Source: a virus
Virus record (IMG/VR): IMGVR_UViG_3300040801_000905
Location: 1 to 64,000 of that record
DNA: 64,000 bases
Reading direction: 5' to 3' (one strand)
This document shows, piece by piece, positions 9,072-61,496 of the stretch. Each line of letters opens with the position of its first letter. Positions within the stretch are counted from its first letter, which is position 1. Position numbers and translations under genes: made by a program. A model generated the notes under the pieces. It did no database searches and was not told the DNA's origin. It saw only the letters and a list, made by a program, of their open reading frames with translations.

Positions 9072-9100
9072 TTGACGCGGTGAAAGGATTGCCCCATAAT
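9072..9100 (+). promoter_or_regulatory. sigma70-type promoter
   Basis: TTGACG (9072-9077), a 17-nt spacer, then CATAAT (9095-9100). The downstream initial transcribed sequence resembles the one after the 8122 -10 box. Confidence 0.65.
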
Positions 9101-9144: not shown

Positions 9145-9924
9145 ATGACATCACCTAATCTTATGCTTCATTGTGGCGCAGCGGAAGTTGCACGAACCGA
9201 TCTTGGAAACCCCAACATTGTTACGATGCCACCAAAGACCCGCACGTATTGCCCAGTAGGACACGAACCGTTTGTTAACTTGGTTCAAGACAAACTGGAA
9301 GAAGTTGGTTTCAGGTTTGGAGCGGAAGCCCACGCACTAACAAAAGAAGGAAACCGTTATTTTGGTTTGGTCCATCTGTTGTGCGGAAAGGAAAACGAAC
9401 AGCACGCCTTGGTTCTTGGAATCCGCAACTCACTGGACAAAAGTTTTCCTGCATCTTTGGCGTTTGGCGCACAAGTGTTTGTCTGCGACAACCTTTGCTT
9501 TAACGGAGAAATCAAAGTGGCCCGCAAACACACCACTAACATCTGGCGTGACTTGCCCTCTTTGATTGGAGCCGCGGTAAGCCAGACGGCATTGATGCGA
9601 GATAACATGGAAGACCGTTTTTCGTGCTATCAGGAACGCCCCTTGTCAACTAAGCAGGCAGACCACCTGATTCTTGAATCGTTACGCAATGGGGCTATTA
9701 ACACCAGCCGCGTGGAGCGAATTGTTAAAGAATGGGACGAACCGTCTCATGACTTTGGGCCACGAACTGTATGGCGTCTGCACAACGCAGTGACGGAAGC
9801 ATTGAAAGATGCACCGTTGCATGATGTTCCAAATCGGACCATGCAGCTTCATGCCATTCTTGATAGAGCGGCTGGCTTTACACCGCGTATGCCGATTGAG
9901 GGGGAGGTTGCAGTAGCAGCGTAG
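9145..9924 (+). CDS. DUF932-family (phage/plasmid-like) protein
   Basis: 'LVLGIRNSLDKSFPASLAFGAQVFVCDNLCFNGEIKVARKHTTN' matches the DUF932 core signature (xRNShDkS...G..vfvCsN...rH) as I remember it. Confidence 0.65.
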   Translation: MTSPNLMLHCGAAEVARTDLGNPNIVTMPPKTRTYCPVGHEPFVNLVQDKLEEVGFRFGAEAHALTKEGNRYFGLVHLLCGKENEQHALVLGIRNSLDKSFPASLAFGAQVFVCDNLCFNGEIKVARKHTTNIWRDLPSLIGAAVSQTALMRDNMEDRFSCYQERPLSTKQADHLILESLRNGAINTSRVERIVKEWDEPSHDFGPRTVWRLHNAVTEALKDAPLHDVPNRTMQLHAILDRAAGFTPRMPIEGEVAVAA

Positions 9925-9930
9925 TCCCCA

Positions 9931-9965
9931 GAGAGAAGGGGTTAAGGTTTTGCTCCCCTTCTCTC
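9931..9965 (+). terminator. perfect 11-bp hairpin after the DUF932 gene
   Basis: GAGAGAAGGGG (9931-9941) pairs with CCCCTTCTCTC (9955-9965) over a 13-nt loop. No U-tract follows. Confidence 0.45.
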
Positions 9966-9969
9966 ATTC

Positions 9970-9999
9970 GGGGCCGCAGCATACGCGGCCCCGCTTTCT
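9970..9999 (+). terminator. rho-independent terminator candidate
   Basis: GGGGCCGC (9970-9977) pairs with GCGGCCCC (9985-9992) over a 7-nt loop, followed by GCTTTCT. Confidence 0.6.
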
Positions 10000-10159
10000 A
10001 AGGAGGTGGAGCAGGCAGTCCTAAAAGAAGACGCTGTGGTACTGGGTAGCTACCTTACCAGAAGTATATTGGTTCGATGTCCATAATTGAGGCAAAGGTA
10101 GAGGCATCCGATACGAACCCTCACCCAATATACTTCACTGACAGGTGTCGGTAGTGACG

Positions 10160-10187
10160 CGGGGTTCGATTCCCCGCCACCCCACCA
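10160..10187 (+). ncRNA. tRNA-like 3' module (T-arm + acceptor 3' strand + discriminator A + CCA); no complete cloverleaf found
   Basis: CGGGG (10160-64), TTCGATT loop, CCCCG (10172-76), CCACCCC (10177-83), A, CCA (10185-87). Candidate partner strands GAGGTGG (10003-09) and GCGGTGG (10327-33) each match 6 of 7. Confidence 0.45.
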
Positions 10188-10399
10188 GTACACGTGGGAT
10201 CGTACCCACTAGTTCCGGTGGCGAATACGGAATGAATCGAAGGAGGCTAACAGCCTACGAAAACAGCCCCCGATAGCATGGGTAATGCAAGGAGTTGACA
10301 GCCCCTTGAGGAATCTCAAATCAGAAGCGGTGGAGGCTACCTCTGTTTAGTAGCCAAGGAAGCCAGCCAAGAAGCTGTCTCAAATTAAGGAGAAAGGTC

Positions 10400-10600
10400 A
10401 TGAGCAAGTGGACACACTATGTACGGGACAAGGAACACCCTGCAAGAGTAACAGTAGTTCAGGCTGTAGACCCATGCACTATTTGTGGAAAGACACACCT
10501 AAAGAAAGATGGAAGGGTAAGCGTGATGCCATGGGTTATGGCTGTGGTTATAGAAAAACTCAAGAGGATCAGTGATATACCACCAAAATCACCCCATTAA
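10400..10600 (+). CDS. hypothetical small protein
   Basis: 66 aa. Strong RBS: AAGGAGAAAGGTC-ATG. Confidence 0.6.
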   Translation: MSKWTHYVRDKEHPARVTVVQAVDPCTICGKTHLKKDGRVSVMPWVMAVVIEKLKRISDIPPKSPH

Positions 10601-48977: not shown

Positions 48978-51900
48978 ATGTCAAAAGTAAATTGGGACGA
49001 TTATTCGTCTATTGGTAAGCCGGAAGATGAAGTGGAAGTATCTTCCGCAACAGCAACCCCTGAAGCCACAGATTCTGTTGGTATCAACTGGGAAGATTAC
49101 GCGGATATTGGCAACTCAGTCGGCTTGCCAATTGAAGCCACACCTGAAGCAGAAGTAACTCAACCGGAACAGCCCCCTGTAGAAGATGAGTATGGTGTTG
49201 GAGACTTTGCATCTGACACCGGATCGGCATTTGGTTTAGGTGCAGGAGCCTTAGCAAAAGGGGCTGGAAAGTTATTTGACTGGGTTGGTATGGACGATGC
49301 TGGAGAGGCGTTAAAAAGCATCGGCCAAAGTGCAGTTGAGTATTATTACAAAGGCTTATCAGATGAAGCAAAAGCCGAGATGGACAAAGAGTTTGTCACG
49401 GTCAAAGAGGGGGGGAAATGGTACAACCCATTAGATTGGCAGCGCCCTGAAGACGCTGCTGGTATTTTTGCTGCGTATTTGATGGGTGTTGAGTCCTTAC
49501 CTGCCACCGTAGTTGGAATGGGCGTTGGCGGTAAAATTGGCCAAGGCTTGTATTCTGTTGCCAGCAGAACAGGCACCATGAAAGCACTTCAGGTTGTGGC
49601 TGACAAAGGTGCACGGGCAGCAGCATCTGGGGCCAGCGCAACAAACAAACTAGTTCGCGCAGGAAAGCGTGCTGAAAAAATACAAAAGCTGGCTGGTGGA
49701 GCTGCTGGCGCTACTGGCTATGGCATAGGTGAAGCCCTTCCTGCTGCTGGCATGGCTGGTGTTCAAGTTGAAGAACAAATCATGGCTATGGACCATGATG
49801 ATCTGTACAAAAACTCATCTCATTATCGTGAATATTTTGATGCCACATCGGGCTTAGATATGTCGATGGATGAGCGCATCAATGACGCTAAGCAAAACAT
49901 TGCAGACATAGCTTCATCTGAAGCTGGCTTAGAAGCGGGCATATGGACTGGCATTCTTGGTGCTCCGATGGGTGTGGCATCAGCTCCGCTATTCAATAAG
50001 GCAGTGCCGTGGGCATTTAAGGGAGGTAAGGTTCGTGGGGCGCTTACAGAAGGCGCAGGCGAAGCTATGCAGGAGTTCGCTCAGTCTGGAACAGAGCAAT
50101 ATGTTTCAAATGTTGCTATTAAAGAATATGCAGACGAAACACTGGATGTTACACGAGACGTAGTAAACGCAGCAGTTGGTGGCGCTGTATCTGGTTTTGG
50201 AATGGGCGCAGCATTTGGTGCAGCTGGCACTCCGTCTAAAGGTGAAAATCAAGACGGCGTTCAGCCTGATCCAAAGCTTTTGGCTGATGCTGAAAAAATG
50301 AACGTGTTTGCTCAGCGTGCCGTTGCAGGACTAGTGGAAACTCATGGACGTTCTTTGGAAGAAGCCATGGAACTGGTTCAGCCAGTTATTGACCAATGGG
50401 CACAATCACAAAAAATTCTTCCTGCCATAACTGATTTGCGTTTTATAGAAAAGTATGGGAAAGAGCGGCAGGTTGGAGTAGAAGAAGAGGTTGTTGATGC
50501 ACCAGAAGAACGCACAGAAGAGGGGGGGCAGGAAACAGAACGTGCCGCACAAGAACCCTCAAGAGAGGGTGGGTCCACCGAAGAACCTGCCACCGAAGAA
50601 CCTACCGCAGAAGAGCCTGCCGCAGAAGAACCTGTTGCAGAAGAGCCTGTTGCAGAAGAAAGAGCAGAAGCGCCAGATGTTGGTGTGGCTAGGAGTGTCG
50701 TTGAGACAGCAAAGGAAGAGTTTAAAAAGGCTGATGAGGCTTGGCAGGACAACCTGACTCCAGAAAATGAGCAAAAAATGCTGGAGGCTAGTGCTGCTAG
50801 GTATGAGGCTGAGGCAGAGCTGGATCGTGCAGAGACAATAAGGCGAACTACAAATCCTCCAGATGTTATTGACCTCAAAACAAATGAGTGGGTAACTCCG
50901 AAGGCGGGCACTGTTGATGAGGGTGAGGCTAAGTACCAAGAGCGTGTCAATAAGATGGGCGACAATCACCCGTCAGCCAGAGCTGCAAGAATACGTAAGT
51001 CACTAAAGGATCAGCCGCCTGTTTCACGTGAAACATCTGGCGAAACAACCACTGAAGACGCTGGCATAGACAAAGAAAATATAGAGTCACAACCGCCAGC
51101 AAATGATGCGCGTTATTCGCTCAGACAGAGGCTGAATGAATATGAAAAACGCACCGAAAGCAACGTTACAAAGTTTGTTAGGCGCGGTAAGAAAGAGCTA
51201 ACAAAAGAAGATGCTCAGGGTTGGGCTAACGAAGCTGTCCGGTTAGTTAATGACTGGTATAAAAACCCCATTCCAGAAGAGGCTTGGGAGCTAGACGAAA
51301 AAGGGATGCCAACAAAAATGGTATCTCTTCCAGAAGAAGCGGCTCCAGCTTATGCTGAATTGTTCATCACTAATGAAAAAGTGACAAAAGAACAAATACA
51401 ACAGTGGGCTAAAAACAGAACATTTAAAAAAGGAAGTACGCTTGAAATTGGACGGCAGTTAGCAAAGGCTGCTGCCAAAAATGATATGCAGGCTGTGGCA
51501 GATATTATTCAAAATCTGCCTATACAAGAAAAAAAATCACAAATAAAAGATTTCAATGCTGAATTTTTGCGGGCTTTAGCTATTAAGGCAGACGCCCCAA
51601 GCGAGGTAATCAGAAGCAAGCCTGAAACAATTGAATACCTATTGCGATATAAAGCTGGCTCACAGCTTCCGTTATTTTCGCTTAAAGAGGGTGAGGCTGG
51701 GCCATGGGTAACGGCGTCTAATGGAGAAGGTGATTTATACATTACGCGCCATGGTGCCCGCGCAGGAACGCCGCATAAAACACGACAGTCTTCCAACGAT
51801 TTAGTCTTACGTATTGATGAAGCGCAGCTCAACAAAGATTACACATATTATCTTCTTCAATATTTGCAAAAGAAAATTGCAAGTAGGGCGCGTGGCACGG

Positions 51901-54900
51901 CGCAGCAAGCCATTAGAGCTGGGGATGTTGATAGCGTTTTGACGGAATACTTTGCGAGTCAAAGCCCGCGGTATTCAATTAAAGAGCTAGCGCGAAGAGT
52001 AAAAGCATCTGAGCGCATGGTGGAGTACAACAAGGAAAGAGCAGAAAAAAATGGCCACCTTGTTAAAACACTTATGCGAACAGACTGGAGCGCTGTTGAA
52101 GCAGCAGTAGATGCTGCTACAGCAGGGGCTGTAAGTGCAAATGAAGTACAGGATGCCATCATTGAGTGGATGATGTATGGCACCAACAGCAAATATTTTA
52201 AGCGATGGTTTGGTAAATCAAAAACCACGGATTACTGGGGTGAACCTATACGGTTTTTTCACGGGACTGGATTTGACATTACGGAGTTCTCGCCCAGCCG
52301 TGGGTTTGTTTCATTAACTACTGATCCAGACTTTGCCTCAAAGTTTGCTGATGAGTTTAGGTTGGAGGCCAATCGTCCAACCGTATACCCATTGTATGTT
52401 GCTGCGGAAAAAATATTTGATTACCGCAACAGAAAAATGAGAAGAAGCTTGGTGCGTTACTTGAAGGGGATCAACGCCAAAGATTACGGGTCGTTGATTC
52501 AAGAAGTAAAAGCAGGCAAGTGGACCGCTTTGGAGTCTGCTCCCGTTCAAAAGTTTTTAACTGAGCGAAGCTACGATGCTTTTTGGATGATGGAAGGCGG
52601 GAGCATGAACATTGGTGTTTTTGATCCGCGTAACATCAAGTCCGCAGTAGGCAATGTTGGTACGTTCAGCAGGCAAACAACACATCTGTCTTATGCGCTT
52701 AAAGCGCCGGGGACAGACGATGTTTTTTATTCCACAATTGAGCGATGGGTTGCAGAAAAAATGCCCCCCAGAATGCCTAAAGCAGATTTTGCAGCGGCAT
52801 TTACTACGCCAAAGGCACTGGAAAAAAAGGGTGTAAAGAAAGAAGAAGTGGCCGATATGGGGGTGATGGAATGGGTCAAGAGTTTAGAAGGAGATATTGT
52901 CACAAAAGAACAGGCTCTTGAGTTTGCACGTAAAGCACGTGTTGAATTACGTGAAATAGAAATAAGACCAGATGCACTAGCTATTGATAGATCAACGTTT
53001 GATGAAGCGTCCGCTGTTCAGCAAATTGAAAATATTTACCAGTTTGCACGTGATTTACTTATAGACACACAAGCGGACCCACTGGTTATCGACTCAGTTA
53101 TTGATCGGTTGAAGGAAGAAGGTGTTCGTGCATTAGACGATGTGTTGCCAGCATCACAGGTAGCCAAAATCAGCAAAAAACTGGATCAGGCACGACTGGA
53201 TTTGTGGCAAGCAGAATATTTTGCTGCTCAGCAGAACAGCAACAAAGACCGAATCAAGGTTGGTGATACAACGTATGAAGACTGGACCCTGATTAAAGGG
53301 GCGCGGCCAACATATCGTGAGTTTTTGATGATGATTCCATCATCAGAACAGCGGCCAGAATATAAAACGCGCCACTGGAAAGACACTAATGTTTTGATTC
53401 ATATGCGCCTGCATGGTCAATATGATTCAGATACAGGTAAAACGACATTAATTATCGAAGAAATCCAGTCGGACCTTCATCAGCATGGATATCGTTATGG
53501 GTATACACCGTCTGATTTATCTCAACAGGATTACGATGAAATAAATGAGGCAACTGGCAAGGTGCCAAAAGCACCATTGCAAGAAGCATGGAAGATGGTG
53601 GGCTTAAAGCGCATGATCCGATACGCTGTTGAAAACGGATATGACTCAGTTTCATGGACAACGGGGCAGCACCACCAAGAGCGATACACCTTAAAAGGGA
53701 GCGGCGTAGAGCGCGTTGAACTGGAAACGCGTGAAGCTGGAGACCATACACAGTATCGGGTGGCTTTGTTTGGGGCAACTGATCAGCTGTATGCACCACA
53801 ACCGTGGGTGCGTAAGCATCGTTTGGGTGATTTTATCACCGAAGAGCTGATTGATAAGCTGTTCGCAAAAATAGAAAGCGGTGGGGCAGCAGAGCTATCT
53901 GGCGAAGAGTTGTGGTGGGATGCCAAGGGCATGAAGTGGTTTTATGATAGCGCCCTAAAAAAACAAGCCGCAAAGTACATTAAGAAATGGGGTAGCAAAG
54001 TAGAGCTGCGTCCTGTCGCCATAGTTAATGCAGCAAACGATCAGGTCACAGAAAACTTGTGGACCTTCGACATTACAGAACAAATGCGTGAGTCTGTAAT
54101 GCAAGGCCAGCCAATGTATAGCTTGGCACCAAATGTGGCAGCTGAAATTAGTCGCCGCATAGAGATGGCGCAGCTACGAGCATATATAGATAAACACATT
54201 CATGCAGACACTAAGCCACGCGCAGCTCTTGCGCGGTTAAACGAGGGTGTCGTTCAAGGGTTGTATAGCGAAGAAATATTGCGTCATTCGGGCGCTGTCA
54301 TGCATGTAAAAGACAGGGTAAAAATGCTGATGGAGGTCAGCGAACGGATGCTCGGAACCCCTATCACTACACGCACATCGTTATCTAAAAGGGTAGTAGA
54401 GCAGGAAATTAATCGCATCAAGCGGGAGTGGGAAAATCCTCCGCAAGTATACGTGTGGGATGATTGGACTGGCCTTCCGCATCACATCAAAATGCATGTC
54501 GCAAGCAGGGGCTATCAAGACCGCGTTGAGGGAGTAGTAGACCCACAGGACGGGTCTGTACATATTGTCGCTGAAAACATCGGAACAATGTCCAGATTGC
54601 ATGAAGTGTTTGTTGAAGAAACACTTGGTCATCATGGCTTGCGTTCGTTTTTTGGTGAAAGCCTTATACCTTTTCTTGATGAAGTTATTCCAGTGATGCG
54701 TGACTCAGAAGGCTGGGTTCGTTTGCATACAGAGTATGAGCATCTGCAACCCGCTAATAAAGAGCAGCGCGTTAAACAATTAATGTCAGCGTATGGTTTT
54801 ACCAAGCAAGAGGCAGAGACAGAGTTTGCGGTTGAAGAGCGCACCAAGGAATGGGTAACTGCTGAAGAACTGCTGGCCAAGATGGATGTTGAGCAGGGAA

Positions 54901-57900
54901 TATGGGAAAAGTTTGTAGGCTGGATGCGCGAATTTTTTAGGAGGTTTGGTCTTCTTAACGGTTACACCGAAAATGATTTCCGTACACTTATGGCAAAGGT
55001 CCACAACCACGTCATGAACGGGACAACCCCGCACGCGTGGGGAAAGAGACACAAATCAGGGGTTATGTACGCGGGTCAGGTGGCATACAGTTTATACGGG
55101 GGCAAAGATGGAATTTTGTTGTCGAAGCTAGAAGAGGCCATAAAGAAACTTGACCCTAAATCAAAGCCAAAAAATTACCTGATCAGAATAAAAGGCAGCA
55201 AGGAAGAAAATTGGATGACGTATGGTGCGCCATCTAATTTGCAAGCTGTACAAAGCCTAGGGTTTAGTGAGTCAGAGCTTCAAATGACTGGGGTTACTGA
55301 TTGGCTAAATGAGCAACATCGTGTTGCGCCAAACAAGTCAATTACCAGAGACCAAATACTGGAGGTTTTTAATAAGACCAAGCCAAAACTTAATGTTGTG
55401 TCTCGTACTGGACATTTCCTGTTTCCAACAATTCCTCTGGCAGAAGTTATAGAAGTTGTTCCAAAGGCCGCGAGAAGAGAATTTGACATAGCAAGCGCAC
55501 AAGAAAATCTTGGATATTTTTCGGATCGGCTTACTGAAGTGTTGAATGATCCTGAACAAAAAATACTGAAGGAGCTGTTTAATGCGGCTCCAGATGAGCA
55601 AGTCACCCCTTCTTTTTTATGGTACAGAGGCGCTGTAAATATGCCGTTTGGAGCTGGTGGTGTTCCTAGTTTAGATGAGTTTAAACAGCGTGGAATATCA
55701 ACAGAAGAAATATCTCAAGCGGTTGGATTGCGTAATTTAAACGCGCCCTTAACGAGAGAAAACTCAACGGCAGAAATGCGCGGGATTGTTGCTGATAGAT
55801 TAGTGCAGAGAGCACAAAACAAGGGAGATGAATATATAAGTTATATGTTTAAAGCTATCGTCACATCTCCATATTTTCCTATGAGGGGAGACGTAAAAAT
55901 AAGTGTGGCAATGGATGATGATGGTCTTCCTGTTGCTGCTTACAGAACCTCATCAAGTATGCAAGAAGCTTTTTTAAAGCCGTTTAATGAAGCAATTGAC
56001 AAATATCGGCGTATGAAAAAAGCGGATCAAGAACAATATGAGCAGGCTACTCAAAGAGCTTTAGAAACACAAAGTAATGAACCACCCCTGACTATGCGAG
56101 GCGTGTATCAGCAAGCACCGATTCCTTCAATGGGTGAGTATTTTACTCAGGTGTTGCAAAACATGATTCAGGAAGAGGTAAATGATCGGTTAAGCAACAA
56201 TGAATGGGAAACGATGACGCCAGAAGCTCTATTCCCTAATTTCCCAGCACTAGGGGAAAAAATAATGATTGGGGTTCGTGGTGCAGTATCAGCTACGAAT
56301 AAACCAGTTTTCATTGAACGCTCCGAAGGTTCGGCAAAATCTGCTTCAGACTATGCGCAATACACATTACAAGGCGGGCAGGCTTTAGACGTTATATCTT
56401 TGCAAATGTACGGACGTAACCAAAACACAGGTTATGCACACTACGACAGAGAAGATGTTGTTCATGCCCGTGTAAAAACCCGTGTTGGGCCTAATGGTGA
56501 AAAAATACTTGGCATTGAAGAAGTCCAATCTGACTGGGCAAGCAATTACCGAAAAGCTCACGTAGAAAGAGCAGAATATTACAAGTGGGCAGATAAACAC
56601 GCAGCAACAGTGGTTCGTGCTGCTGTTAAATTGTATCAATCACACGGAATTTACTCTCATGACATGACACCTGAAACAGTCCAGTCATGGAGGAACTGGG
56701 TTGAGAGTGAAAGCCCAGCAGCCGTACAGATACGCGCTCGTATGGCAGCGGACAGAATATCATTATCTTCTCTTCTTGATACAGGGATAGGCTCATTTGC
56801 TGCTATTGAAGCGTTAAGTCAAGTTGATAAAACACTGGCCAGCGAATTAAAAACGGCTGCGCTGGAACTCAAAGGATTAAAGAAAAGTTTTGAATATATG
56901 CCATGGGTTGGCAACTACATGGACTTGATGTTGTCTGCGCTTGTGGGGTATGCGAGGCAAACAGGCTTTGATGTTGTAGCGTGGCCTGAAGGTAGTCACG
57001 TGGCGCGAATATATGGAAGCTATATGGGCGAAGAGGTAAACGGTCTTCGTATCAATCCACAACAAATGGTTGTATACGGTTCAATGACTGGCCCTAATGA
57101 ACCGTCCAACAATACCGCATGGACAGAGATTGCTGGAACGCTTCGCACAGGACAACATCGTGTTTACACGGCAGATTATTTGGGTGAAGTTATTGATGAA
57201 GGTGGGGTAAATGCAGAGGTAGCTAAGGCAGCTGTAGAGGCTCTTCAGGCATGGATAGATAACCCAGATTATCGAAACAACCCTGTAACCAATCAAGAAG
57301 ACCAAACAAAAACATGGAAGTATAAGGTTGAGACTGACATAGGCAATAGATATTTACGGGTTTCTGAGAATGGAGACCTGTTAATTATGTTGCCAGAAGA
57401 GCGTCTATGGAATGCCCGACTGCATAAGCTGTTGTACAACAGGCTTTTGCCTCAAGCAGCACGGGCTATTGCCAAAGATACCAAGGCAATGAAAAAGCGT
57501 GGTGAGGTATCGACTGGCCATGTTTATGTAGAAGACGCTTATAACGTACAGTGGCGCGGCAGAAGGCGGGATGAGAATGTTGATGACTGGGCAAACCCAA
57601 ATGACCACCAAGATGTAGAAATGGAAGGACGCCCGACCCAGTATCCAGAACAACTAGAAGTTCTTATGTATGGCAGAGACGGTGGTTCATACAGAAGAAG
57701 CCTGCGCGACTGGATTGCAAACACTCCAACACGTCAAATACAAAGGTATTCCCAATCTGATGAAGCTGTTCTTATAAACGAGCAGATAGTAAGGGATATG
57801 GGGCAACATACCGTTGAGCTTAAATTAGATGGAATCATTCACACTCATGGAGCTGATTACGATGACATTAATCCTATGGTTGGTATGTTTGACTTCAGTG

Positions 57901-60900
57901 TTGTTGGGCGGGATGGAAACCATTCCGTTTTAATTCCTGTTGGCGACTATAACAACAGTCCAGTTGGGGCAAGATACACTGACTACACACAATACAATGA
58001 TAGTGCCCGTGCGCCCATGCTTTACCGTATGGGTTATCAAATAATGAAATACGTTTGGGGAATTGAAAATCCAAATCCCTTAATCATTTCGCCCAACACA
58101 TGGCGAAGACTAATGGAGCAATTTCGTATTGGTTTGGCAGACTTTGAAGATCATGGCTTTGAAGTGAATGAAAATTGGGTTCAGTTCGGTGAAGAAGTTA
58201 TGAAAAACAACTGGGAGGAATCCAAAGACAATTTTGAAGTAGAGGCAGAAGAAAGATTTAGTCAGATGGAGCCTGAAGAATATGACCCTGTATATTGGGG
58301 TTTTGACTACGACATATATACATCACTTGATGATGGCTTAGAAGATGACGCGCCAGATTTTGAACGTAGATTCAGCCATGAATTTGAATTTGGACTAAGC
58401 CAAGAAACAATTGATTTATTAAAAGAGCACGGCACTTTAAAAGATAAAGGCGCGGCTGCGGTGTTGCTTTCTATTATGTCTGAATCACCGCTGGCCATGG
58501 AACACGCGGACTATCAAGCTGTTGCTGATTTGTGGAATGAACTTGATACACCGCCAAGAGAAATCGCTGAAAAAATACCGCCCGCATACATAGAAAGATA
58601 TGGGGCAGTTGAGCTGGAGGAGAGACAACAAGAGCAAGAGCTTATTCCGTATGGCATCGACAACCCTCAGCGTTCAGAACAGGTTTGGCACGCCATATTT
58701 ATTAATGACAGGGTAAAGGAGCGTGATATTTTCGTACCGTTTTCATTGAGAAATGACGGTAATGAAAAGGCGCGGTCTATTGTTAACCAAAAAATAGCAA
58801 AATCACACAGCCAAATGACAGTGCTGGATCGTGTTACGCATTGGACCCACGTTGTTCATGACAAAATAAAAACAGGTGATCTGATGTGGGGAATGAAGCA
58901 GGGGCTGCTTGATTCTGCCGCAAGTGTTGAACGATGGGAGCGTGAAATATTTGGTGAAGTTCAGGATGCTGCGGTATCTCCATACAAGATGATGCATATG
59001 ACAAAAAATCTTGCATCAGTTATGGCCGCAATATCCAAGGCAGGCATACCGGAAATGCGTGATGGTGTGTTTCAGCCCGTTGATGGAAGAAAGGGTTTTA
59101 TTGAAATCTTTCGCCCTGTTTATGAGCACCCAGATGGTGACTTACAAGAACTGTGGGAAGGCTATGCAGCTGCACGCCGTTCTGATGAATTGCTAGAGCA
59201 GACCAATCCTGACGGAACTGATAGAGAAAAACTATTCAGTCGTGAAGAGGTTGATGAACTGTTGCAGTTGGGTGAAAAATATCCTGTTTTCAAAACGGTG
59301 TTTGATGAGTGGACTGAGTTCAATAATCAGCTGCTAGACCTTGCTGTTAGTGAAGGTGTATTAAGTGCAGTAGAGCGAGACGCTTGGGCTAAGAACGCAT
59401 ACGTCCCCTTCTATCGTGCCATGGAAGAAATAGAAGGCGTTGATCAACGCACTGGTATGGGCCGCACCAAGGCTGGTGTGGCAGGACAGCACCCGCTTAT
59501 TAAACGGTTGCGTGGTAGTAAGCAAAAGCTTGGAAACATCACAGAAAATCTTTGGTTCAACACTGCTAGCTTGATTGACAAGGTTTACAAGAACCATGCA
59601 ATGAATCGTGTTGTTGATATGTTGGATGGTGTGGCGATGAAAGAAATCGACATGCCATGGGAGGCCATCAGAGTAAGTAACAGTCAAATTGCACAAGCAC
59701 TAAAAAGCGCAGGCATTCTTACTGGAGATGCTGAAGCACAAGTACGCGCAATGTCAGCAGAACAGAAGATGACGTGGAATACCATTTTCCGCAGGGTGCG
59801 GCCAACTGCTGATAATGTTGTTGGTGTAATGCGTGAAGGAAAGATGCGTTATTACGAAGTTCAAGATGAACACTTGCTTGTAACCCTAACTGGCATGGGG
59901 GCTGAAAGCATGGTCGGCTTGATGAAGGCTATGGGAATGTCCAAGTCTTTGTTGACGCGCATGATTACCATTGATCCCGGCTTTATGCTTGCCAACTGGT
60001 TACGTGACACGCTGTCTGCGTGGGTTACATCTGACGCCAACTTTATTCCAGTTAAAGATTCTATTGCTGCTATGGGCAGTGTCTTTAAAGAAGACGGTAG
60101 CTTCGTAAAGATGATGATGTCTGGTGCAGGTGGTGGTGGTTTTTACGATCTGACGGGAGGTAACGTAACAAAGGTTCTTGATGAAGAGTTGAGCAAGGGA
60201 GCGCATCGTTGGCTAGGAAAGGCGTGGAAGGGGTATATGAAAATTGGTGCTGCGTCAGAAAACTCCAATCGTCTGGCCATTGCAAATCAAATCCTAAAGA
60301 AAGGTGGCAGTGCTGCGGAAGCCATGTATCAGGCACAAGACATCATGAACTTCACCATGTCTGGTGACTATGCCGCAATACGATTCCTGATTCGTACTGT
60401 CCCATTTTTGAACGCACGGATGCAGGGCTTGTACCGCCTTTACCGCGGTGCTCGTGACAACCCTGTTGGTTTTACCATTAAAGGCGCGGCCCTAATGTCA
60501 GCGTCATTGGCATTGCTGGCTAAGAATTGGGACGATGATGATTATGAGGAAACCGATGAATGGCTGAAAGATCGTGACTGGAGCTTTTATGTAAATGGAA
60601 TGCACTACACCATACCAAAACCGTTTGAGGTTGGGTTGTTGTTTGGCACTCTTCCAGAACGGCTGGTGCGTGCGCTGCTTGGGCGAGATGATTTGGATGT
60701 AAGCAAGGATGCGCTAATGCGCGGCATCGGAGAAACGCTTGCTTTCAATCCTATCCCGCAGCTTATTAAACCAATGTATGAGTTGGGCGCAAACAAGAAC
60801 CTGTTCACAGGAAAAAAGATTGTTAATCTCTCTATGAGCGGTTTGGAATATCCCTATCAAGCCACTCCATGGACCTCCCCTGTAGCCAAACATATTGGTC

Positions 60901-61496
60901 AGGCAGTGCCTGAAGCTTTAGGGCCAGCGCAAAGTCCACTGCGAATCCAACACACCATACGTGCATACACTGGAACGGTTGGTCTGTACACGCTTAATTC
61001 AGTTGACTGGCTGGTGCGTAAAATGGATGGGGACTTGCCCCCACAACCTACGCGCAAGTGGTGGGAAAGACCCGTGATTAATAGAATCGTAAAGGGTCCA
61101 ACAGAAACTACGCGATATAACAAATATGAAGATAAGCTGTATGATTTGATTGATCAATCAAATAAAGCGCAGCGGACGTTTAACATGCTGGCTAAACAAC
61201 AGCGTATTGAAGAAGCCAAAAAAATTGCGGCCAAGCGTAAGCATTTGATTAACCCAGACATCAACGCAGAAACTGGTCAGCCGCGGAACCGTGATGCGGT
61301 TACTCCGCGTACAGAGTTGATGAAGGTGCAAAAAGCTTTACGTGATATCAATGAGGCTCAACGTGCCATCATGAATCACAAGACTATGAGCAGTGATAAG
61401 AAGCGGGCTATGTTGGACAAGCTTACGGCACGCAAGAACAAAATCTTGTCCAATTCAAGTAACCTTATCGAAAAAATCAATCAAATGAAGCCGTAA
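48978..61496 (+). CDS. giant (4172 aa) mosaic virion/ejection protein with an ART-like domain ('polyvalent protein' type)
   Basis: A single uninterrupted ORF. The position is equivalent to T7 gp16. The N-terminus has a Gly-zipper hydrophobic region. Other features: 'WFGKSKTTDYWGEPIRFFHGT...SLT...MMEGG..NIGVFDPRNIKSAVGNVGTF', two copies of an 'EE(I/V)QSD...G(Y/F)D.V.W..G' module, and an approximately 900-aa C-terminal domain ('AYVPFYR', 'ENSNRLA', 'VPFLNARMQG'). Confidence 0.85.
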   Translation: MSKVNWDDYSSIGKPEDEVEVSSATATPEATDSVGINWEDYADIGNSVGLPIEATPEAEVTQPEQPPVEDEYGVGDFASDTGSAFGLGAGALAKGAGKLFDWVGMDDAGEALKSIGQSAVEYYYKGLSDEAKAEMDKEFVTVKEGGKWYNPLDWQRPEDAAGIFAAYLMGVESLPATVVGMGVGGKIGQGLYSVASRTGTMKALQVVADKGARAAASGASATNKLVRAGKRAEKIQKLAGGAAGATGYGIGEALPAAGMAGVQVEEQIMAMDHDDLYKNSSHYREYFDATSGLDMSMDERINDAKQNIADIASSEAGLEAGIWTGILGAPMGVASAPLFNKAVPWAFKGGKVRGALTEGAGEAMQEFAQSGTEQYVSNVAIKEYADETLDVTRDVVNAAVGGAVSGFGMGAAFGAAGTPSKGENQDGVQPDPKLLADAEKMNVFAQRAVAGLVETHGRSLEEAMELVQPVIDQWAQSQKILPAITDLRFIEKYGKERQVGVEEEVVDAPEERTEEGGQETERAAQEPSREGGSTEEPATEEPTAEEPAAEEPVAEEPVAEERAEAPDVGVARSVVETAKEEFKKADEAWQDNLTPENEQKMLEASAARYEAEAELDRAETIRRTTNPPDVIDLKTNEWVTPKAGTVDEGEAKYQERVNKMGDNHPSARAARIRKSLKDQPPVSRETSGETTTEDAGIDKENIESQPPANDARYSLRQRLNEYEKRTESNVTKFVRRGKKELTKEDAQGWANEAVRLVNDWYKNPIPEEAWELDEKGMPTKMVSLPEEAAPAYAELFITNEKVTKEQIQQWAKNRTFKKGSTLEIGRQLAKAAAKNDMQAVADIIQNLPIQEKKSQIKDFNAEFLRALAIKADAPSEVIRSKPETIEYLLRYKAGSQLPLFSLKEGEAGPWVTASNGEGDLYITRHGARAGTPHKTRQSSNDLVLRIDEAQLNKDYTYYLLQYLQKKIASRARGTAQQAIRAGDVDSVLTEYFASQSPRYSIKELARRVKASERMVEYNKERAEKNGHLVKTLMRTDWSAVEAAVDAATAGAVSANEVQDAIIEWMMYGTNSKYFKRWFGKSKTTDYWGEPIRFFHGTGFDITEFSPSRGFVSLTTDPDFASKFADEFRLEANRPTVYPLYVAAEKIFDYRNRKMRRSLVRYLKGINAKDYGSLIQEVKAGKWTALESAPVQKFLTERSYDAFWMMEGGSMNIGVFDPRNIKSAVGNVGTFSRQTTHLSYALKAPGTDDVFYSTIERWVAEKMPPRMPKADFAAAFTTPKALEKKGVKKEEVADMGVMEWVKSLEGDIVTKEQALEFARKARVELREIEIRPDALAIDRSTFDEASAVQQIENIYQFARDLLIDTQADPLVIDSVIDRLKEEGVRALDDVLPASQVAKISKKLDQARLDLWQAEYFAAQQNSNKDRIKVGDTTYEDWTLIKGARPTYREFLMMIPSSEQRPEYKTRHWKDTNVLIHMRLHGQYDSDTGKTTLIIEEIQSDLHQHGYRYGYTPSDLSQQDYDEINEATGKVPKAPLQEAWKMVGLKRMIRYAVENGYDSVSWTTGQHHQERYTLKGSGVERVELETREAGDHTQYRVALFGATDQLYAPQPWVRKHRLGDFITEELIDKLFAKIESGGAAELSGEELWWDAKGMKWFYDSALKKQAAKYIKKWGSKVELRPVAIVNAANDQVTENLWTFDITEQMRESVMQGQPMYSLAPNVAAEISRRIEMAQLRAYIDKHIHADTKPRAALARLNEGVVQGLYSEEILRHSGAVMHVKDRVKMLMEVSERMLGTPITTRTSLSKRVVEQEINRIKREWENPPQVYVWDDWTGLPHHIKMHVASRGYQDRVEGVVDPQDGSVHIVAENIGTMSRLHEVFVEETLGHHGLRSFFGESLIPFLDEVIPVMRDSEGWVRLHTEYEHLQPANKEQRVKQLMSAYGFTKQEAETEFAVEERTKEWVTAEELLAKMDVEQGIWEKFVGWMREFFRRFGLLNGYTENDFRTLMAKVHNHVMNGTTPHAWGKRHKSGVMYAGQVAYSLYGGKDGILLSKLEEAIKKLDPKSKPKNYLIRIKGSKEENWMTYGAPSNLQAVQSLGFSESELQMTGVTDWLNEQHRVAPNKSITRDQILEVFNKTKPKLNVVSRTGHFLFPTIPLAEVIEVVPKAARREFDIASAQENLGYFSDRLTEVLNDPEQKILKELFNAAPDEQVTPSFLWYRGAVNMPFGAGGVPSLDEFKQRGISTEEISQAVGLRNLNAPLTRENSTAEMRGIVADRLVQRAQNKGDEYISYMFKAIVTSPYFPMRGDVKISVAMDDDGLPVAAYRTSSSMQEAFLKPFNEAIDKYRRMKKADQEQYEQATQRALETQSNEPPLTMRGVYQQAPIPSMGEYFTQVLQNMIQEEVNDRLSNNEWETMTPEALFPNFPALGEKIMIGVRGAVSATNKPVFIERSEGSAKSASDYAQYTLQGGQALDVISLQMYGRNQNTGYAHYDREDVVHARVKTRVGPNGEKILGIEEVQSDWASNYRKAHVERAEYYKWADKHAATVVRAAVKLYQSHGIYSHDMTPETVQSWRNWVESESPAAVQIRARMAADRISLSSLLDTGIGSFAAIEALSQVDKTLASELKTAALELKGLKKSFEYMPWVGNYMDLMLSALVGYARQTGFDVVAWPEGSHVARIYGSYMGEEVNGLRINPQQMVVYGSMTGPNEPSNNTAWTEIAGTLRTGQHRVYTADYLGEVIDEGGVNAEVAKAAVEALQAWIDNPDYRNNPVTNQEDQTKTWKYKVETDIGNRYLRVSENGDLLIMLPEERLWNARLHKLLYNRLLPQAARAIAKDTKAMKKRGEVSTGHVYVEDAYNVQWRGRRRDENVDDWANPNDHQDVEMEGRPTQYPEQLEVLMYGRDGGSYRRSLRDWIANTPTRQIQRYSQSDEAVLINEQIVRDMGQHTVELKLDGIIHTHGADYDDINPMVGMFDFSVVGRDGNHSVLIPVGDYNNSPVGARYTDYTQYNDSARAPMLYRMGYQIMKYVWGIENPNPLIISPNTWRRLMEQFRIGLADFEDHGFEVNENWVQFGEEVMKNNWEESKDNFEVEAEERFSQMEPEEYDPVYWGFDYDIYTSLDDGLEDDAPDFERRFSHEFEFGLSQETIDLLKEHGTLKDKGAAAVLLSIMSESPLAMEHADYQAVADLWNELDTPPREIAEKIPPAYIERYGAVELEERQQEQELIPYGIDNPQRSEQVWHAIFINDRVKERDIFVPFSLRNDGNEKARSIVNQKIAKSHSQMTVLDRVTHWTHVVHDKIKTGDLMWGMKQGLLDSAASVERWEREIFGEVQDAAVSPYKMMHMTKNLASVMAAISKAGIPEMRDGVFQPVDGRKGFIEIFRPVYEHPDGDLQELWEGYAAARRSDELLEQTNPDGTDREKLFSREEVDELLQLGEKYPVFKTVFDEWTEFNNQLLDLAVSEGVLSAVERDAWAKNAYVPFYRAMEEIEGVDQRTGMGRTKAGVAGQHPLIKRLRGSKQKLGNITENLWFNTASLIDKVYKNHAMNRVVDMLDGVAMKEIDMPWEAIRVSNSQIAQALKSAGILTGDAEAQVRAMSAEQKMTWNTIFRRVRPTADNVVGVMREGKMRYYEVQDEHLLVTLTGMGAESMVGLMKAMGMSKSLLTRMITIDPGFMLANWLRDTLSAWVTSDANFIPVKDSIAAMGSVFKEDGSFVKMMMSGAGGGGFYDLTGGNVTKVLDEELSKGAHRWLGKAWKGYMKIGAASENSNRLAIANQILKKGGSAAEAMYQAQDIMNFTMSGDYAAIRFLIRTVPFLNARMQGLYRLYRGARDNPVGFTIKGAALMSASLALLAKNWDDDDYEETDEWLKDRDWSFYVNGMHYTIPKPFEVGLLFGTLPERLVRALLGRDDLDVSKDALMRGIGETLAFNPIPQLIKPMYELGANKNLFTGKKIVNLSMSGLEYPYQATPWTSPVAKHIGQAVPEALGPAQSPLRIQHTIRAYTGTVGLYTLNSVDWLVRKMDGDLPPQPTRKWWERPVINRIVKGPTETTRYNKYEDKLYDLIDQSNKAQRTFNMLAKQQRIEEAKKIAAKRKHLINPDINAETGQPRNRDAVTPRTELMKVQKALRDINEAQRAIMNHKTMSSDKKRAMLDKLTARKNKILSNSSNLIEKINQMKP
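50580..50660 (+). repeat. 5 x 15-nt in-frame tandem repeat (EEP[AT/TA/AA/VA/VA])
   Basis: gaagaacctgccacc / gaagaacctaccgca / gaagagcctgccgca / gaagaacctgttgca / gaagagcctgttgca. Confidence 0.9.

Follow-up and report, generated by a model that had tools for sequence, protein, structure and literature searches.

An undescribed covarying RNA module, with a tRNA 3′-end look-alike at its edge, in a variable slot of a metagenomic phage

What is the 3′ end of a transfer RNA (tRNA) doing in a non-coding gap of a phage genome that offers no tRNA to go with it? The question is raised by positions 9925-10399 of the window, by which we mean the whole stretch of DNA analysed, 64,000 nt of the virus record IMGVR_UViG_3300040801_000905. 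The window covers nearly all of a metagenomic phage contig of 64.7 kb, and its phage is called W here. No open reading frame (ORF) of at least 60 aa lies in this gap on either strand, the longest being 47 aa. Two strong hairpins near its 5′ end are perfect inverted repeats of 11 bp (9931-9965) and 9 bp (9969-9993), and further on a T-arm, CGGGG-TTCGATT-CCCCG at 10160-10176, is followed by CCACCCC, A and CCA to 10187. A first-pass annotation, made from the letters of the window, had described these features correctly and had noted that no complete tRNA is present; at its default setting ARAGORN makes 0 calls of tRNA or transfer-messenger RNA (tmRNA) in the window. It had also rightly taken the gap for a structured, non-coding and probably functional RNA region, and on both strands the gap indeed gives better folds than its shuffled versions (z = -3.7 and -4.3).

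Here we describe the part of the gap that appears to be under selection, which is not the tRNA-like end. The first-pass annotation had mentioned further hairpins, but it had missed the 193-nt module at 10189-10381 as the selected part. Judged by comparison of related sequences, the gap is apparently composed of three unrelated pieces: the two hairpins, an insert of ~387 nt, and the conserved module inside that insert. The module is a previously undescribed structured RNA, built as follows.

10189-10381, + strand: conserved structured RNA module of 193 nt and eight helices (nhmmer against the distant relative L001, E about 1e-28)
10194-98 / 10205-09: helix P1
10212-17 / 10228-33: helix P2, with the invariant loop GUGGCGAAUA
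10244-48 / 10252-56: helix P3
10263-67 / 10374-78: helix P4, the long-range closing helix, invariant
10269-71 / 10280-82: helix P5, with the invariant loop GAUAGCAU
10290-94 / 10302-06: helix P6
10307-10 / 10315-18: helix P7
10335-40 / 10350-55: helix P8

Related phage loci carry labels of the form L0xx; the closest to W is L048, the distant one is L001, and L049 is identical to W. At the same place L001 has a gap of 357 nt, identical in L045, L046 and L070-L072, whose 3′ 190-205 nt match W. Nucleotide identity between W and L001 is 76% in the module, against 62% in the DUF932-family gene that precedes the gap and 43% in the small ORF that follows it. Covariation was scored over 38 pairs in an alignment of W, L001 and a truncated third variant, L067. 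Every testable pair cell (81/81) is a standard pair and 14 pairs have changes on both sides, whereas slid controls give 0-2 double-changed pairs with 31-48% pairing and 0/500 shuffles reach the observed values. Compensatory changes support 7/8 helices, and the partial L067 contributes such changes in P1. The differences between W and L001 fall mostly in the stems, the loops and junctions being almost invariant; the near-invariant unpaired parts are GUGGCGAAUA, GAAU-GAAGG, ACGAAAACAGC, GAUAGCAU, UAAUGC and GAAGCG-UGGAGG. The RNA is read from the + strand, like the genes, because its G-U pairs (the closing pair of P2, and pairs in P6 and P8) would become A-C mismatches if the - strand were read. 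These patterns argue very strongly for a genuine selected RNA structure, in which we have high confidence. Covariation analysis in relatives, which the first-pass annotation had suggested, shows a T-arm that is not conserved and a module downstream that covaries strongly. Likewise GGCTAC/GTAGCC at 10335-10355, which it had likened to a D-arm, is a real helix but is P8 of this other, conserved RNA.

Neither 10189-10381 nor the L001 copy has a match among the 4227 families of Rfam 15 at E up to 10, and a literature search on the motif words returned only unrelated primer sequences. Eight IMG/VR, one JGI metagenome and two GTDB scans with exact or degenerate patterns yielded nothing beyond the L001 contig and chance matches in coding DNA, and a covariance model of the module (R1) found no further copy in 477 kb of related loci. 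Twelve contig look-ups through homologues of the DUF932 gene and the small ORF yielded the partial L067 and the identical L001 copies, so that the known variants are W (= L049), L001 with its identical copies, and L067. A likeness between Escherichia coli 4.5S RNA and P8 with the junction after it was considered and dropped: Rfam gives no signal recognition particle match and the L001 copy diverges.

The module has definite ends. Its 5′ boundary is sharp, since in L067 the module (TACAC-P1) starts right after TTTAAGG and the sister L068 diverges after TTCTAAGG. At the 3′ side the L001 module ends in GCTGTC, and the TATCAACACAGGAG that comes next is native pre-ORF sequence found also in L068. 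From the module end to the Shine-Dalgarno sequence of the next gene there are 8-10 nt in both full copies, and no sigma-70-like promoter or terminator was found between module and ORF.

How the module came to lie in this place is suggested by the closest relative. In L048 just 92 nt separate the DUF932 gene from the small ORF, and they consist of the same two hairpins followed by GCTTTCTTACAGGAGAAGGGCT-ATG. The sequences of W and L048 are collinear as far as GCTTTCT(T)A, part there, and rejoin at AGGAGAA(A/G)GG...ATG; W therefore has ~387 extra nt, flanked by a repeated word.

roughly 10006-10392: insert of ~387 nt, missing in the closest relative, between two TAAGGAG copies
9999-10005, + strand: TAAGGAG at the left insert junction, an orphan Shine-Dalgarno copy with no start codon at usable distance
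10386-10392, + strand: TAAGGAG at the right junction, the working Shine-Dalgarno sequence for ATG 10400

The contents of this place vary among the relatives. The gap after the DUF932 gene measures 64-84 nt in L053, L055 and L069, and elsewhere the slot encodes proteins, of 199 aa in L050, 146 aa in L052 and 143-155 aa in L073-L076. This makes the slot a hypervariable accessory position, immediately behind a hairpin and a Shine-Dalgarno sequence. In L068 (1058-1185) it holds a different element of ~125 nt with a long closing stem, AAGGATGATGGCGGG...CCCGCCATCCTT, followed by a 110-aa basic ORF; this element has no Rfam match at E up to 10 and may be another structured RNA cassette. The TAAGGAG flanks suggest that the W insert was gained by recombination at Shine-Dalgarno microhomology, in a phage that encodes RecT. 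The insert would be a cassette acquired in this way, in a slot that sister phages fill with nothing, with protein-coding 'morons' or with other hairpins.

Other origins of the insert were considered and rejected. For an intron there is no Rfam group I or group II match. No placement of the boundaries within the 7-nt repeat gives both the U before the 5′ splice site and the terminal G of a group I intron, or both the GUGYG and the AY ends of a group II intron, and no domain-V-like hairpin was seen on inspection. For a transposon or miniature inverted-repeat transposable element, neither terminal inverted repeats nor a second copy was found. A decayed protein gene received nothing from tblastn of all the relatives' slot ORFs against the gap.

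The 5′ part of the insert belongs to W's own lineage.

10006-10188, + strand: lineage-specific structured 5′ block, not alignable to relatives
10061-10072 / 10125-10136: long hairpin with a perfect 12-bp stem (inverted repeat I1)

This block folds with z = -3.5. Homology to the 5′ block of L001 was rejected: each has a long hairpin, yet they share ~45% identity over 92 alignable nt and have no consensus structure. Just upstream of the long hairpin (10061-10136) lies a perfect 10-bp palindrome, GGTAGCTACC, at 10045-10054, which could be a protein-binding or restriction-type site. An 11-mer, CACCCCACCAG, is identical in W (10179-10189) and L001 (4814-4824), in each case after a GC-rich hairpin and at different positions relative to the module; its estimated chance expectation is ~0.04, and it may mark a recombination junction or be a coincidence.

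The tRNA look-alike sits exactly where the W-specific block meets the shared module.

10159-10187, + strand, W only: T-arm GCGGGG-TTCGATT-CCCCGC, then CCACCCC, A and CCA

Its features are canonical (G53-C61; T54 T55 C56 R57 A58; a 7-nt acceptor 3′ strand; discriminator A; an encoded CCA), and 10160-10187 carries both a T-arm with a GTTCRANNC loop and a 3′ NCCA. By 600 Markov-simulated windows, a T-arm-like hairpin alone is unremarkable, with 0.285 expected per 64-kb window; requiring a correctly spaced CCA as well lowers the expectation to 0.0067 per window, which makes the combination unusual, although the figure is post hoc. The likeness stops at the fragment. Matches of blastn to phage tRNAs cover only 10159-10192 and the sequence upstream has no tRNA likeness; no GGGGTGG lies within tRNA distance to complete a 7-bp acceptor stem, the best local 5′ strand pairing 5/7; and the D-arm and anticodon arm of a full cloverleaf were found by none of ARAGORN, Rfam and blastn. 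At the place of the T-arm L001 has CCCCC-GAA-GGGGG and L067 has CCCCCC-16 nt-GGGGGG. These are unrelated GC hairpins, and therefore the T-loop, acceptor strand and ACCA are not conserved features of the element.

The look-alike is most likely what remains of a tRNA 3′ end where a mosaic recombination left its junction, or else a chance resemblance; the relic is the most economical reading because the fragment lies at the exact junction and the clade carries tRNA genes near the slot. A decayed tRNA, which the first-pass annotation had listed among its options, may account for the 28-nt fragment but not for the rest of the region. That the T-arm is no part of a working tRNA-like molecule we hold with good confidence. 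An 8-nt complementarity between the T-loop (10165-10172) and a junction of the module (10234-10241) was set aside as not conserved in L001 and at chance level. The same T-arm, CGGGGTTCGATTCCCCG, occurs in a ~100-nt element of an unrelated viral contig (L058:545-640, - strand), whose ends GGGTGTGG / CCACACCC could form an 8-bp acceptor-like stem and for which ARAGORN gives no call.

Several quite different accounts of the region start from the tRNA-like end or from the DNA itself. The first-pass annotation had proposed a functional tRNA-like non-coding RNA (a decoy, a primer, or a substrate for CCA addition or aminoacylation) or a tmRNA-like or permuted molecule, with an acceptor closed by GAGGTGG (10003-10009) or GCGGTGG (10327-10333). 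The perfect T-arm consensus with its spaced A-CCA, at the low chance expectation given above, favours such a molecule. As in permuted ssrA genes, a T-arm/CCA piece is followed by a later G-rich word resembling a 5′ acceptor strand, and ARAGORN at relaxed thresholds (-ps70, -ps50) does offer permuted tmRNA candidates, already at 70%, besides a 'tRNA-Ser' with a 56-nt intron. These calls are mutually inconsistent and were treated as noise. In Rfam nothing relevant in the whole window, and no tRNA or tmRNA, reaches the gathering thresholds; the sub-threshold matches at E up to 10 are driven by the T-arm, with mascRNA-menRNA at 21.7 bits against 42.5, tmRNA_permuted at 16.1 against 47, beta_tmRNA at 14.7 against 84, and tRNA-clan matches below 15 bits. 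Compared with mascRNA-menRNA the look-alike has two mismatches in the 7-bp stem. The two acceptor complements are at chance level, there being 172 words in the window that match GGGGTGG at 6 of 7 positions, and GCGGTGG belongs to the conserved junction before P8 of the other RNA (GCGATGG in L001, which lacks the T-arm). Position 70 in the 3′ strand CCACCCC is C, which rules out G3:U70, the alanine identity pair that a tmRNA requires; the tag found at relaxed threshold, AKEASQEAVSN, is not a conserved frame in L001. Pfam domains were scanned in ORFs of at least 100 aa not inside a longer ORF, plus several shorter ones, and no integrase or recombinase, reverse transcriptase, CCA-adding enzyme, RNA ligase or Ro-like protein was found among them. 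With T-arm and ACCA absent from both other variants of the element, a tRNA-like molecule is largely refuted by lack of conservation, and we regard it as very unlikely. The fragment could instead be the core of a phage attachment site (attP) for integration into a host tRNA gene ending ...GGTTCGATTCCCCGCCACCCCA, as had also been proposed; it spans exactly the part of a tRNA, from T-arm to CCA, that many integrases use, and among its blastn neighbours are unannotated places close to where temperate actinophage genomes end. This account is the hardest to credit. No exact copy of the 25-mer occurs in IMG/VR or in GTDB, with one genome for each of 185,579 species, among which the true host may be unrepresented, so that no host tRNA 3′ end was matched; the one 20-mer match in IMG/VR belongs to an unrelated element; RecT, a PDDEXK-like domain protein (DUF3799) and RusA are the only recombination genes found; and the closest relatives lack the fragment. 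An element acting in the DNA itself (a replication origin, a packaging site or a single-stranded DNA recombination site), with hairpins in DNA and not RNA, would accord with the significant folding of both strands, with the palindrome at 10045-10054 and several direct repeats, and with the tolerance of single-stranded DNA for G-T pairs. Against it, eight short helices with near-invariant unpaired junctions are what a folded RNA shows, unlike iterons or repeats that bind proteins, the wobble pairs work on only one of the strands, and the closest relative replicates and packages without the insert. This, too, is most improbable.

There remains what the module does as RNA. In the explanation that we consider best, it would be transcribed as a portion of the small-ORF operon's leader, where it would bind a ligand or a protein and so regulate, in cis, the translation or stability of the message. 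Its position in a 5′ leader, 8-10 nt from the Shine-Dalgarno sequence, and its architecture fit what is expected of a riboswitch or cis-acting leader. Action in cis on the downstream operon is nonetheless a tentative assignment, to which we give somewhat less than an even chance. It competes with a stand-alone accessory non-coding RNA, an RNA 'moron' perhaps including the 5′ block, that is cut from a polycistronic transcript and acts in trans, for example against host defences or on host targets; the T-arm/ACCA hairpin could then be a processing signal or a protection of the 3′ end of the preceding fragment. Such an RNA would suit the cassette-like presence or absence in a slot that holds protein morons in sisters, the sharp drop of identity at both module ends, 5′ flanks that differ among the three variants (in L067 the module follows TTTAAGG directly) and a downstream ORF that does without the module in relatives. 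It is harder to square with the lack of a promoter or terminator of its own among the features found, with the same place of every known copy at 8-10 nt from the Shine-Dalgarno sequence, and with the failure of the 477 kb of related loci and of the IMG/VR, JGI and GTDB pattern scans to give a second copy or another context. We think a trans-acting RNA possible, though unlikely. No expression platform was identified, and three variants are too few for a choice between cis and trans action.

Several points weigh against the explanation that joins hairpins, cassette, cis-acting leader module and relic T-arm. No convincing alternative pairing that hides the Shine-Dalgarno sequence was found, nor an expression platform of terminator type. 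Just two full variants and a truncated one define the core, and any pseudoknots, poorly. The orthologous small ORFs of sister phages do without the module, a pattern uncommon for a dedicated riboswitch and just as compatible with an accessory RNA that acts in trans. The two TAAGGAG copies are possibly a target duplication of the transposition type, or a coincidence among common Shine-Dalgarno-like words, of which a third, AAGGAGG, lies at 10240-10246. A probability of ~0.007 per window for a T-arm with spaced CCA makes pure chance an uncomfortable account of the look-alike, and a structural role of the T-loop hairpin in the W variant is possible. Taken whole, the explanation seems to us about as likely to hold as to fail. 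A bolder version, in which the module represents a novel class of functional RNA carried by phages (an anti-defence RNA, or else a riboswitch or ribozyme for an unknown ligand) that spread as a cassette through Shine-Dalgarno microhomology and in W recruited a tRNA-derived T-loop/ACCA hairpin for processing or docking, is doubtful.

The surroundings of the slot are as follows.

9072-9100: promoter-like site TTGACG-17-CATAAT upstream of the DUF932 gene
9145-9924, + strand: DUF932-family gene, upstream neighbour of the gap (Pfam PF06067, E = 1.3e-5)
9931-9965, + strand: hairpin 1, 11-bp stem (inverted repeat I2)
9969-9993, + strand: hairpin 2, 9-bp GC stem, then GCTTTCT (inverted repeat I6)
10400-10600, + strand: 66-aa ORF, function unassigned, first gene 3′ of the gap, with its ATG at 10400

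The structure of hairpin 1 is kept, with changed stem sequence, in L048 and L069, both of which lack the insert, and hairpin 2 is nearly identical in L048. Hairpin 2 is terminator-like with a weak U tract, and a terminator scan gave no call (fewer than 5 T in the tail). The hairpins at 9931-9993 would end the DUF932 transcription unit. A purine-rich/pyrimidine-rich hairpin after the DUF932 stop codon recurs across the clade with altered stem and without a proper U tract (W 9931-9965; L048:5916-5952; L069:2200-2240), and it may be an element of RNA stability or attenuation rather than a plain terminator.

The DUF932 orthologues of L048 and L001 are 88% and 60% identical to that of W in amino acids. 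The 66-aa ORF has a 79% identical homologue, P0002, in L048 and an orthologue of ~30% in L001; it has no Pfam or PHROG match, and it occurs in relatives both with and without the RNA module. W has no cultured relative that we could find: a blastn search with the region gave no match in 50,697 phage records (INPHARED) or in E. coli genomes, and the nearest cultured tblastn matches of the neighbouring gene are ~30% identical. The + strand of W carries genes for a helicase, a primase, SSB, the small and large terminase, DUF932, many small ORFs, RusA, an SU10-type portal and adaptor, structural proteins and a 4172-aa polyvalent protein, and at its right end RecT and the DUF3799 protein are encoded on the - strand. 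The 4172-aa ORF (48978-61496 of the window) has an ART-PolyVal ADP-ribosyltransferase domain at residues 1087-1230 and LPD38 near its C-terminus. W is without any tRNA gene. L001 has a tRNA-Leu(GAG) 50 nt upstream of its DUF932 gene, directly preceded by a strong sigma-70-like promoter, TTGACA-17-TACGAT (L001:3821-3953).

Among known systems, the module is closest in form to orphan riboswitch candidates and structured 5′ leader RNAs: it lies in a + strand 5′ leader and ends 8-10 nt before a Shine-Dalgarno sequence, and it has a four- or five-way junction closed by the long-range P4, with covarying stems and near-invariant loops and junctions. It differs from them in having no Rfam match, no recognisable expression platform, and orthologous sister genes without the module. 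GOLLD and ROOL are large 'ornate' phage-associated non-coding RNAs that often lie near tRNA genes. Like them, the module is a phage-borne complex multi-helix RNA of accessory distribution, in a clade with tRNA genes close by, but it is much smaller (193 nt, at most ~390 nt with the 5′ block), is known from a single genomic context and has no Rfam match to GOLLD, ROOL or HEARO. The look-alike shares T-arm, acceptor 3′ strand, discriminator A and CCA with tRNA 3′ halves, mascRNA-type modules and tRNA-derived attP cores, but it is without acceptor 5′ strand, D-arm, anticodon arm, conservation, host match or integrase. As a caution for annotation, a perfect T-arm with CCA can occur at a mosaic junction outside any tRNA-like molecule.

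Eight helices within 193 nt and a very strong covariation signal drawn from a handful of sequences make the module a good candidate for biochemical screening for a ligand or partner. If it is a working regulatory or trans-acting RNA, it would enlarge the small group of structured RNAs that phages encode by a new, complex fold. In that case it would also be an accessory cassette made of RNA alone, in the hypervariable position where sister phages have protein genes.

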